This document shows, piece by piece, positions 24,771 through 29,400 of a DNA stretch of 64,000 bases. The notes under the pieces were generated by a model. It saw only the letters and a list, made by a program, of their open reading frames with translations, did not search any database and was not told the DNA's origin. Origin of the DNA: Centroscyllium fabricii (taxonomy: Eukaryota). A program made the position numbers and the translations under genes. The DNA lies in assembly GCA_051313645.2 (NCBI GenBank), contig JBNRSN020000026.1:78306001-78370000 (forward strand). The letters are read 5' to 3'. Numbering within the stretch: the first letter of the stretch is position 1; the number at the start of each line of letters is the position of its first letter.

Positions 24771-26289
24771 CACACAACATGTACAAATAACAGACACCCC
24801 TGCATCAGTACTGTACAGCGAGGCACCTTTTCCCCGCGTGTTGTTAAATATTAAAGACGACCTAAACTTTTCTGTGGTACTGCTAATAATTTTTTCTTCT
24901 TTTTATTCTGTTGTGTTGTCCTTTCGCTGTTAAATGCTTATTGCTGTCTTACATATGTCTGTGTCAGTGAACTGTTGGTGCTTTCTGGAAAAAAAGTAGC
25001 ATGTTTTTTTGTGGATTGTAAATGGTATAACTTATTTATAATTGACACAAGTTGTACAATTTGATCTTCCTTCCCTCCCCCACGCTGATAAAAAGCTAAA
25101 CTCTTTGCTGTTGCACTATCGCCTTTCAACAATATATACACCTTGTAAGTTTCTGTCCTTATGCTGTCCGTGATTTTAAGCAACGTCCGTATGTCGAAAT
25201 TCCATGTAGAATTCTAATCATTGTTAATACATGTGGATAGATTCTAAAATCAGCGATGATTGTACACGATTATTTAGTGAGTTATAATGGTTGTAAATAA
25301 TACAAAAAAAGTTTATAATGTTGCCTATAGCTAGTCTGTAATGGGCAGAGTGATGAATGGCATATTTTCTGTGGAAATCAACGACAACTATGTCGAGCTC
25401 CCGCAGTATGTTGCCAACAAGCTTTTTGTATCTGTTTGTAGCTTAATTCGAAATAAAGTAAAAGTTTCTCATAACCAGCCCTGATCTCTGTGGTGTAATA
25501 TGTCGAGTGTGTATAAGCTGGCATCTTATCACTTGGTGCAATACGGGTTCTACAGCATCTGGGGAATCCCTATTGTTAGTATCTAGTACAATAAATATTA
25601 TCAGGCGTGTTACATTTGAATATTGCTACGTGTTTTGTGATATCTTAACTGTGCATTTTATGAAGGCACATTAACAGCGTACATAATGATTTTTTTTATT
25701 AATTAGCATCTATGATTGCTTCTCGTTTTTATATTTTGTAATTAATTCTATAAACTATTATTAGAACGTAACTTTACCTGGCTCTATTAGGTAACCTTTC
25801 ATCTTAAACCCTAAAGGTTATCTAACTGTTACTGATTTGCGTGCGCCGCTGGGTGTATCTCTCTTATACTTTGAAGACGGCATTTGTGTTGTTTAACTTC
25901 TTTGATTTGGACATTTCTGGATCTAACTGAACTCGGCATCCTCTGGTTAAGCATTTCCACAGGATTGTTTTGTATTCGCTCTTGTTGAGTATATTCGATA
26001 AAAGGGGTCCTCAGACTTGGTTTCTACGCCATGCCCCCAGAGAGTTGTACAGTAACAAGATGTACTGTTTAGAAGTTTGTCTATACAACAAACTGCACGC
26101 GCTCTTTTTGTAAATCTGGCTTCATTTGTGTGCAACAGGTAAACCTTAGTTTAAACTCAACTTACCAAAAGAACGTCCACGTGCTTATCTGTAGTTGATA
26201 AGTCACAGAGCAAATGTTAGCTCTATCCTGCTCCCCTTGTGAATATAGCAAACTACATATACAAGAAGTCGGTATGACATTGGGATGTC

Positions 26290-26450
26290 AAATGAATTGG
26301 GTATTTATCTCAAAGTTAGATCGTAAAAATCGCCCATACCGCAGGCAGATACCCCTACTGGCTCTCAAAAGTCACGTGGGGTCGTTAAAGTTAGTTTTAT
26401 GGTTGTGGGGAGTTGACAAGGTACAATATATTTCACATTCTGTATAATGT
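26290..26450. promoter_or_regulatory. Conserved element 3' of Hox5, candidate bidirectional promoter
   Basis: ACTGG-N11-CACGTG followed by GGGTCGTTAAAGTTAGTTTTATGG..GGGGAGTTGACA; TCGTAAAA upstream. Confidence 0.6.
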
Positions 26451-29400
26451 TAGTGACGCTGAACTTTATCTGGCTGGCTTTGCAGTGTGGAAGCGGATAA
26501 TGTGACTAGTCTTCCAGAGGAATCGAGCAGGCCTCCTTTACCAGACCTGCCGGTCCCAAAATCTTTAGCGACTGTAATTTAAACTCACATGGAACTGTAC
26601 AGCTCAAAGTAAGTTATGTTACATTATAAACCACGGCGTGTACTGCATCTGTCAGCAGGGCTCGCAGGAGCTGCCAAAATGAAGGGGAAAAACTCTTTAA
26701 TAACGTTTAATTGGCATTACTGCGGATATTGTAGCTTTTCTAACTATATTGGTCTCTGCTTTAACCAATGCAGTGGGCCCAAACTGTAAAGAAACGTAAG
26801 ATATGGTGGACGGGAGCAATGGGCCTACTTCCTAGCGTTTGATTAATTTACTTCAGTAGATTTAAATGTTCCGAATGTTTTATTGGGGTGACATTGAACT
26901 GGAATAGAGTATATAGATATATATCGGATCTCGTTTGTTTGAAAGTATCGCGGGGCTGTACTTTCTGGTAACCTCTCGTCTTGCGTTCTGCAAACTCATT
27001 GCCTGGTTGAGAATTCGTTTGTTACCTGTCTGTAACACAATGACAATAATTTACTTTGTGTTTTGCTTTTGATTTGATAAGCTGTGTTTCGGATCAAAGA
27101 AGAAAGCGCCGTGTCCTTTAAATATGAATTTGAACTATTTAGCTGTGGGGAAGGGTGGTGGGGGGGGGGGGGGGGCGGTTGCTCAAACGTGTTCGCACCT
27201 CTAGTTGTTAATCTGATGCAAAGTTTACTCCAGTTAATAGTCCAGATACAAGACGTGGTTCACCCTGGATGCAGGCTTTTCGTTTCTTCCTTAACTTCAT
27301 TTTATTTACAAAATATCAATAACTTTTTTTTAATTTCCTGTAATAATTATTGTGCTGTAACACTGGCGGTTCAATACTGTCCCGTGTGGATTAATGTAAT
27401 CTTATATAGTCTGTTTACGTATATTGTTTAAAAAGGAAATCGGCCTTTTGAGGAAGGCTGTGCGCAGTCAAGGACATCTTTTATTTTTAAAACACTTCCT
27501 TGGTTTATCAGTCTTCCAAATGTGAACACTCCCACTAACTGAATGCAGAATGAATATTAATTATGTTGCTTGTTAAACTAAGAGTCAAGTTGATCGCCAG
27601 TGTTTTTAATGCTTAAAATAAGGGACATCCAAATATATGTTAGTATCTATATCGTAAGCTTTTGCAAATATTAAATGAAAAAAGGATTCTTATTCAAAAG
27701 CATCCATGTTACAGTGGGGTCTAATCTCAAAATGATCCTTAATAATATTTTGACTAAACTGCCCCCCCCCCCCCCAACCTCCCAATACTGCCTCACCTTC
27801 GACATCTCCCACTCTTGTTTTCGACGCTCGATCAGTAGGTTGGAGTTAGGCTGGGTTTTCTGACTCTGGCCTAAGTAAACTATCTTGTGAATTCATAATG
27901 CATTCAAGGTGCGCAAGGGAACAGCAGCAATGTTAACCTGCCCTCGAAAGTCGAAGATACATGTGTAAAAGTGGATAGAGGTGTATTTTCTCACCCCCAT
28001 CCAATTGTAAAATAAGTATTTGATCAACTAGCAAAATATTTTCAAAATATTAAGTGCTCCATACTTTCTGTAACTGTTCTGGATTCAAATGCGAAACTAA
28101 ATCACTACTTCGAAATTACAGTCTTTAACTTTTACTGCTGTCAGTTTAGAATTATAGACTTTTAGTCTCTATAAATGTCATCGTTTTGAAATGTGACTCT
28201 TAAGTACGACTAATTGAAAGTTGCACAGAATTGTATACGAACATTTTTCCTTTGGGGGTTGAAGTTTAAGTGAGAGACAGGGGAATAGGTGCTCTATCAA
28301 TGTGTTGGGCTAAAGATATTCTTAACACAAACGGATATCCTTTGATCCCACAATAAAGAATTATCCCAAACAAGTACAGAGACTAGCGTTCTAGAATATA
28401 GTTCGTATTTTATTTATGCACTGCACTTACTGTGTTACAGTGCTTGGATACTGTCACCGTTAGCTTTTATCAAGAGTAAAATTGGAAGCATTGTCACCCT
28501 TACTGTACTAGACTTCCCGTCACGCTAATCTGGTGACTGTCTGCAAATTTTGAGGTTCATTGTAAAGATTACTTGTGCATTCACAAAAGCAGTCTAAGGA
28601 GAAATGCAGATACATAAGAGGAAAATTATACTTTGACATTTCTCATCAGTAAATGTCAAGTTTCTCACCCTGTGATAATCAGTGTTGTGGCAAAGTCCTC
28701 GAAGCCGTCTGTCAAGTTTTTTTTTAATTCTTGCCGTTTCCGGTCTGCAGTTTGAGGGGGGAGGGGGGAGCTTTTTAAATCAATGTTAGGAGTCAAAAGT
28801 TTTTTTCCTCTCTCTCAGAATTTCGAAATGTTTCTGTCATTTTTTTTATTGCTTCTCCGCGCTGATAGCTCAGGAAATCCAATGGGTAAACAGGAAAACA
28901 CATCCCTGACGGAGGAAGTACATTGTGGTCTTGCGTTCCATTTCTCATTTTATTCCTAGTGCCCGGTATAACTGAACGCGTGTCCTTCAGTGTTCTGCAG
29001 CAAAATGGGGAAAAAGCAACAATTAATGCAATTCGTTTTAGAATTTCTAAATACCTATTTTACACGTGGAGTTAGAGCATTGCGGCCAAAATGGCTCACG
29101 GTTTTGTGTTTGGGCTAAACACTTTATTTGTAGGTTTTATTGTTTTCTTCAGAAGCAAAATAATCTGTCAATTTCAGATCCGCTTCATACACCACCACCC
29201 AACTTCCATTCTTTTCAGCCTTGATGGTGTCCTACACTTGGCCCTTCACTTAGCTTTTTTCAATCTGATTTAAAGGCAGGATGCTCAGGAAATACATTAG
29301 TGTAATAGTTTCTGATTAGTGTGAGAAAGAAGCTGATAGAGCACACACAATTACAAAAAGAGACAAGAAACTACGGGCTCTTTATAGATATTGGTACAGA

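Follow-up and report, generated by a model that had tools for sequence, protein, structure and literature searches.

The 64-kb stretch of DNA analysed here (the window) belongs to a HoxB cluster whose genes, recognised by six-frame motifs, lie on the plus strand in the order Hoxb8, b7, b6, b5, b4, b3. Between the end of the Hoxb5 mRNA and the mir-10 hairpin that precedes Hoxb4 lies a conserved core, flanked on each side by an outward-facing GTAAGT donor (Table 1). An earlier note had read this arrangement as a candidate two-way promoter of ancient origin, giving an antisense RNA over Hoxb5 and Hoxb6 and a long sense RNA spanning mir-10a and Hoxb4. The motifs on which that reading drew, namely ACTGG, the CACGTG E-box, TTTTATGG and a donor hexamer on each strand, are all found exactly where they had been placed, with the donor G lying 208 nt to the left and 236 nt to the right of the E-box. 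Scans also returned RARE-like sites at 31438, 34473, 41938 and 55486, away from the promoter core.

Table 1. Features along the two arms of transcription and within the core (a slash marks the exon-intron boundary of a donor; X1, X2 and X3 are sequencing runs described in the text)
Feature	Position	Strand	Basis or remark
Antisense exon 2, between Hoxb6 and Hoxb7	18109..18766	-	junction acceptor 18767-68; 3' end predicted from AATAAA 18109-18114
Antisense GT-AG intron, 7,399 nt, over Hoxb5 and Hoxb6	18767..26165	-	one contig, one run (X3)
Hoxb6	ATG 19493	+	six-frame motif
Hoxb5 coding region	23239..24770	+	six-frame motif
Hoxb5 mRNA end	AATAAA 25452; contig end 25468	+	adapter-bearing contig end in X3
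Antisense 5' splice site, TTG/GTAAGT, G at 26165	26160..26165	-	plus strand reads ACTTAC; paralogous donors at -237 (HoxA) and -230 (HoxD)
Antisense (HOXB-AS3-like) exon 1, minimal extent	26166..26271	- (inferred from GT-AG polarity)	X3 contig; X1 contig begins 26166
Conserved promoter core	26273..26485	.	paralogues: HoxA, 79% over 213 nt; HoxD, 76% over 96 nt
ACTGG-N11-CACGTG	26357..26378	+	ACTGG at 26357, E-box 26373-26378; same spacing in all three clusters
TCGTTAAA, degenerate CCATTAAA CDX site	26382..26389	+	2 of 8 letters differ; motif named in PMC8330917
TTTTATGG element	26395-26402		motif location
CCATAAA, CDX1/2-type site	26396..26402	-	unchanged in three paralogues; PMC8330917
Probable sense non-coding exon 1	26465..26608	+	extent per X2 contig; X1 contig ends 26608
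Sense 5' splice site, AAA/GTAAGT, G at 26609	26609..26614	+	paralogous donors at +221 (HoxA) and +216 (HoxD)
mir-10 hairpin	36599..36674	+	Rfam RF00104, E 1e-18
Hoxb4	38084	+	six-frame motif
Hoxb3, predicted last acceptor to ATG (ATG 58530)	58414..58532	+	predicted destination of long sense RNA

Within the core, CCATAAA and TCGTTAAA form a pair of CDX-type sites on opposite strands, the former exact and the latter degenerate. The second of these sites reads TCATTAAA in the HoxA copy of the core and is an exact CCATTAAA in the HoxD copy. The donor hexamers by themselves are weak evidence and say little, because the window holds 16 copies of GTAAGT and 8 of ACTTAC (24 over both strands) and donor-like sites of similar score stand close by, CAT/GTGAGT on the minus strand at 26588 and CAG/GTAAAC on the plus strand at 26139.

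Transcript-like contigs at the two donors

Nine sequencing runs cover the stretch; none of the nine is on record as RNA and three were guessed to be RNA. Over 24800-27140 we compared these three (X1, X2 and X3, from two studies) with one of the other six, the DNA run X8. The contigs come from related species, are 90-99% alike and carry no strand, start or level; the DNA control is from a different relative than the organisms of the RNA-guessed runs, and parts left uncovered in X2 and X3 were not counted as silence. In X3, Hoxb5 ends just past its AATAAA, with adapter letters, a sign that this run is RNA.

Contig ends in these runs fall on the two donors. In X1, the limits of one contig are precisely 26166 and 26608, and the adjoining contigs, which reach to 26195 on the left and start at 26579 on the right, each overlap it by 30 nt, the mark expected of a branch in the assembly graph at both donors. 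In X2, a contig covers 26465-26608, immediately downstream of the core, and in X3 a contig covers 26166-26271, so that exon contigs flank the core (X3 stopping at 26271, X2 starting at 26465), which is only a hint of divergent starts. Across the three RNA-guessed runs, 4 of 14 internal contig ends lie exactly at 26166 or 26608 (the count excludes two short pieces derived from another locus, and the naive P of about 5e-10 treats ends that are non-independent). The DNA run, by comparison, crosses the whole of 24800-27140 as one piece. X1 and X8 also match 26419-26454 over 36 nt, but this match stems from another locus and was set aside. Contig depths of 30 and 5.8 on the two sides of 26608 in X1 are not taken as expression levels.

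As for the antisense arm, the X3 contig is preceded by 29 loose letters that have a single match in the window, at 18738-18766 (0 in 100 shuffles), and the letters that follow that match are CT, that is, an AG acceptor on the minus strand with a pyrimidine-rich tract. The contig thus joins 26166 to 18766 across a canonical intron. In this way the antisense RNA that the earlier note had proposed over Hoxb5 and Hoxb6 is supported, at the very donor at which it had suggested looking, by one contig from a related species, with the strand taken from GT-AG polarity. No ORF longer than 54 aa occurs in the modelled antisense RNA, which is predicted to be non-coding. TATA-like matches point to no consistent start site: they occur on the minus strand near -120 from the E-box in all three copies of the core, but the X3 exon extends past them.

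It could be argued that the related species differ in their DNA at these points or that the breaks and the join arose in assembly, given that the RNA nature of the runs was guessed and that the DNA control stems from a different relative. We give this explanation hardly any credence, as the breaks coincide with donors that had been predicted beforehand (the 4 of 14 ends above), X3 also has contigs inside the skipped part (in the Hoxb5 3'UTR and at 25892-26190) and the DNA of another relative (X8) shows no break.

With regard to the sense arm, the 26609 donor is probably in use: contigs of two studies stop at 26608, where the DNA run is continuous, although we grade the stopping of contigs from two studies at one place as a weak hint. 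The further course that had been proposed for this RNA, over mir-10a and Hoxb4, leans on the parallel with zebrafish, because the contigs show the sense donor without an acceptor. A long sense RNA splicing past mir-10 and Hoxb4 into Hoxb3 is predicted by analogy, and the mir-10 hairpin would be intronic within it. Sequence prediction offers candidate downstream exons with donors at 44297 and 55404 (the one at 55404 has an identical counterpart in HoxA), followed by the acceptor at 58414. A sequence scan yields 26 acceptor-like sites ahead of Hoxb4 and 13 from 39.2 to 45 kb, too many for a choice among them.

Read-through from Hoxb5 may also supply the sense donor, because X1 cover is unbroken from the Hoxb5 3'UTR through 26608. 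Taken to its extreme, this would make the promoter a one-way element, with the core driving the antisense RNA alone and the 26609 donor serving Hoxb5 read-through towards Hoxb4 and Hoxb3. Besides the continuous X1 cover, polycistronic Hox RNAs are described as common (PMC1831499), and the main text on the human counterpart of this promoter (PMC8330917) does not use the word 'bidirectional'. We nevertheless consider a one-way promoter unlikely: X2 has a separate contig beginning just downstream of the core, X3 shows a functional poly(A) end of Hoxb5 at 25468, the distance from donor to core is kept in all three clusters that carry the core, and the corresponding zebrafish transcript is described as beginning 3' of hoxb5a. 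We continue to favor a promoter that fires in both directions.

Paralogous copies in HoxA and HoxD

The same genome carries a HoxA cluster (A7-A2) and a HoxD cluster (D8, D5, D4, D3, D2), each on another contig. The presence of groups 5 and 2 in HoxD suggests that the DNA is that of a cartilaginous fish. When 26230-26480 was compared with the 7.2-Gb genome, three matches were returned: HoxB itself, HoxA and HoxD. A 19-base pattern built on the E-box, TTAAA and TTTTATGG likewise occurs at three places in the 7.2 Gb, in the same three clusters, and its reversed control at none. Neither of these two whole-genome searches returned a HoxC (fourth) copy of the core, which does not prove its absence. 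The E-box lies 1602, 1599 and 1587 nt past the Hox5 stop in HoxB, HoxA and HoxD, respectively. The three copies scarcely align beyond the core, and antisense exon 2 gave no BLAST match in HoxA or HoxD.

Strong outward donors are present on both sides of the core in all three clusters, scoring 8.2-10.0 bits on an approximate donor matrix. Among random triples of centres, 0, 1 and 8 per 100,000 had both donors agreeing within 30 nt at scores of at least 8, 7 and 6, respectively, these thresholds having been set post hoc with the data already known. None of five other tri-paralogous blocks, RARE-like ones included, had a two-sided donor pair, and three of the five had a donor on one side at threshold 6. 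The keeping of the donor pair across three paralogous clusters suggests that the two-way cassette arose before the vertebrate genomes were duplicated; its layout would predate both rounds because, in any two-round tree, three of the four clusters together reach back to the root.

These comparisons bear on a further alternative, in which the core would be a CDX/E-box enhancer that gives rise to short eRNAs in both directions, with GTAAGT words on either side by chance. The frequency of such words (24 on both strands in 64 kb) and the donors of similar score nearby in other orientations speak for it. We regard it as very improbable, and as already largely refuted by the 7.4-kb GT-AG join; also against it are the base-exact contig ends, the donor pair in three paralogues, as opposed to none in the five other blocks, and the location of the RARE-like sites elsewhere.

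The proposed promoter and its known counterparts

Given the above, we regard the element as the likely orthologue of the HOXB-AS3 (Hoxb5os) promoter, one that probably works in both directions, with an antisense exon spliced from 26165 over Hoxb5 and Hoxb6 to 18766 and a likely sense exon running to the 26609 donor and predicted to continue into Hoxb3. A plausible scenario for its action would be that: (i) CDX proteins on the paired CCATAAA and CCATTAAA-type sites, together with a bHLH-zip factor on the E-box, open the core of about 200 nt, as the motifs suggest; (ii) polymerase II starts outward on each side of the core; (iii) U1, recruited by the strong 5' splice site that lies 100-150 nt into each RNA, protects long elongation; (iv) the antisense RNA supports, in cis, the expression of Hoxb5-7, as in human cells; and (v) the sense RNA serves as pri-miR-10a and as a Hoxb3 isoform with posterior expression, like that of zebrafish. 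U1 bound at a 5' splice site favors long elongation as a general mechanism.

We lean slightly towards a broader proposal, namely that the conserved unit would be a two-way cassette of about 450 nt, consisting of the core and one outward 5' splice site per strand and placed 1.6 kb past the Hox5 stop, that was kept and is used in HoxA, HoxB and HoxD, predates both vertebrate genome duplications and in every cluster links a Hox5-6/7 antisense RNA with a long Hox3/miR-10 RNA. If true, HOXA-AS3, HOXB-AS3 and a HoxD antisense RNA would be one ancestral unit, and the cassette would be an extra constraint binding the middle of the cluster together. That the spacing of both donors, beyond the factor-binding core, is still kept in three paralogous clusters after more than 450 million years suggests that long transcription coupled to splicing has been selected for in both directions, and the two GT dinucleotides provide simple targets for telling a role of the RNA from a role of the DNA element.

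The observation with which we started is exact and the reading placed on it largely right, and most of it is known. The arrangement was rightly called ancient, yet for the antisense RNA and its promoter this age is already in print, with elephant shark among the species (PMC8330917). What the present data do for that published Hox lncRNA promoter is to confirm it in a further early-branching jawed vertebrate, with the exact antisense junction, and the modest addition is the retention of both donors in three paralogous clusters. In the literature covered, largely open-access papers, we found no statement that this promoter is two-way, that it has a HoxD paralogue with conserved donors or that the donors are conserved across three clusters. 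Genome-browser annotations place HOXB3 and HOXB-AS3, as well as HOXD3 and HOXD-AS2, head to head.

Precedent for the sense arm comes from zebrafish hoxb3a splv2 (BK005082), described as having a non-coding first exon between hoxb5a and hoxb4a and as giving an RNA that spans miR-10c, hoxb4a and hoxb3a (Woltering and Durston 2008, Phua et al. 2011; PMC2148072, PMC3185001). The two systems share a first exon 3' of Hoxb5, with a donor that is probably used here; they differ in that support here is limited to the first donor, the later exons (44297, 55404, 58414) being predicted. The likeness is one of position. Hadrys et al. 2006 is reportedly the study cited for the zebrafish hoxb3a long transcript. 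In the mouse, a long Hoxd3/miR-10b transcript is reported to arise from the Hoxd4 P2 promoter (PMC3185001). Like P2, and like the HOXA-AS3 promoter, the element described here lies between Hox5 and Hox4 and would give long sense or antisense RNAs, P2 being a candidate for its HoxD copy.

Three elements are reported to be common to all four Hox clusters (Matsunami and Saitou 2013), and tetra-paralogous conserved non-coding Hox sequences are attributed to Matsunami et al. 2010 as cited in PMC3595034. As with those sequences, ours is a non-coding block common to paralogous clusters, but only three copies were found in this genome. A so-called 'four-cluster sequence' lies between Hox5 and Hox4. 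The promoter core may be one of the three elements common to all four clusters. Further Hox context is available in PMC1449890, PMC8293171, PMC3750649, PMC2080641 and PMC8334257.

The closest comparison is with HOXB-AS3 itself. According to Degani et al. 2021 (PMC8330917), the human RNA starts about 900 nt past the HOXB5 3' end and ends between HOXB6 and HOXB7, its orthologues reach back to elephant shark, and its promoter is 73-80% identical to that of HOXA-AS3, bears tandem CCATAAA and CCATTAAA sites and was concluded to predate cluster duplication. The same paper presents knock-down in human cells as suggesting action in cis on HOXB5-7, effects described as small in a reviewer's report published alongside it, and leaves open whether the RNA or the DNA element has the role. 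Its main text never presents the promoter as two-way and mentions no HoxD paralogue of it: the word 'bidirectional' is absent (0 occurrences), and the five mentions of HOXD all concern other matters. Figures S1 and S3 of the paper (shark gene models and first-exon donors) may already show the donor described here. Our element agrees with HOXB-AS3/Hoxb5os, as described there, in its position about 0.8-0.9 kb past the Hoxb5 mRNA end (25468 here), in a spliced RNA antisense to Hoxb5 and Hoxb6 whose end lies in the Hoxb6-Hoxb7 interval, in oppositely oriented paired CDX sites and in its identity to the HoxA promoter (79% here versus 73-80%); it differs in that one CDX site is degenerate and in that HoxD here has a copy with the core and both donors.

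Contig cover and additional donors beside the putative two-way promoter

In a run from a related species that is guessed to be RNA, a single contig covers all of 25469-26195, the interval that separates the Hoxb5 poly(A) site from the antisense donor. This cover may represent read-through, unspliced antisense RNA or DNA. There is also a further strong minus-strand donor to the right of the promoter core, at 26588 in the HoxB copy and at +252 from the E-box in the HoxA copy, and such donors could be used by antisense RNAs that start further downstream.

Copies in other Hox clusters and matches elsewhere

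Whole-genome searches with the promoter element itself found copies in HoxA, HoxB and HoxD only and none in HoxC. HoxC has been lost or has decayed in sharks and rays, and this search result fits with that. In the HoxD stretch of the same genome, the D8-D5 interval is without a group 6 or 7 gene.

Two short segments of the window match non-syntenic places, one in HoxD (33062-33149; 77%) and one, inverted, in HoxA (16163-16245; 89%); both are probably repeat fragments within Hox clusters. Separately, 36 nt of the window (26419-26454) also match an unrelated locus in two runs from relatives, one guessed to be RNA and the other DNA.

Candidate promoter, exon and retinoic-acid elements towards Hoxb3

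Coordinates of conserved features in the window and of the HoxD stretch
Feature	Location	Remarks
DR5 retinoic-acid-element-like sites	34473, 41938, 55486	conservation of the surrounding blocks extends to HoxA and HoxD
DR2-like site	31438	within block 31424-31546, which HoxA also has
Second CACGTG-N5-TTAAA block	44038-44302	conserved with HoxA
391-nt block	55177-55556	80% identity to HoxA
HoxD stretch	G000:C1377, ~121.728-121.777 Mb	D8, D5, mir-10, D4, D3, D2

The second CACGTG-N5-TTAAA block lies 3' of Hoxb4, and a GTAAGT follows 190 nt downstream, at 44297. It resembles a repeat of the layout 3' of Hoxb5, a promoter with a short exon, and is possibly the distal Hoxb3 promoter. The 391-nt block contains an invariant AAG|GTAAGC donor (at 55404) and is a probable Hox3 5'UTR exon adjoining a RARE-like site. 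The DR5- and DR2-like sites are probably the known Hox4/Hox3 RAREs.
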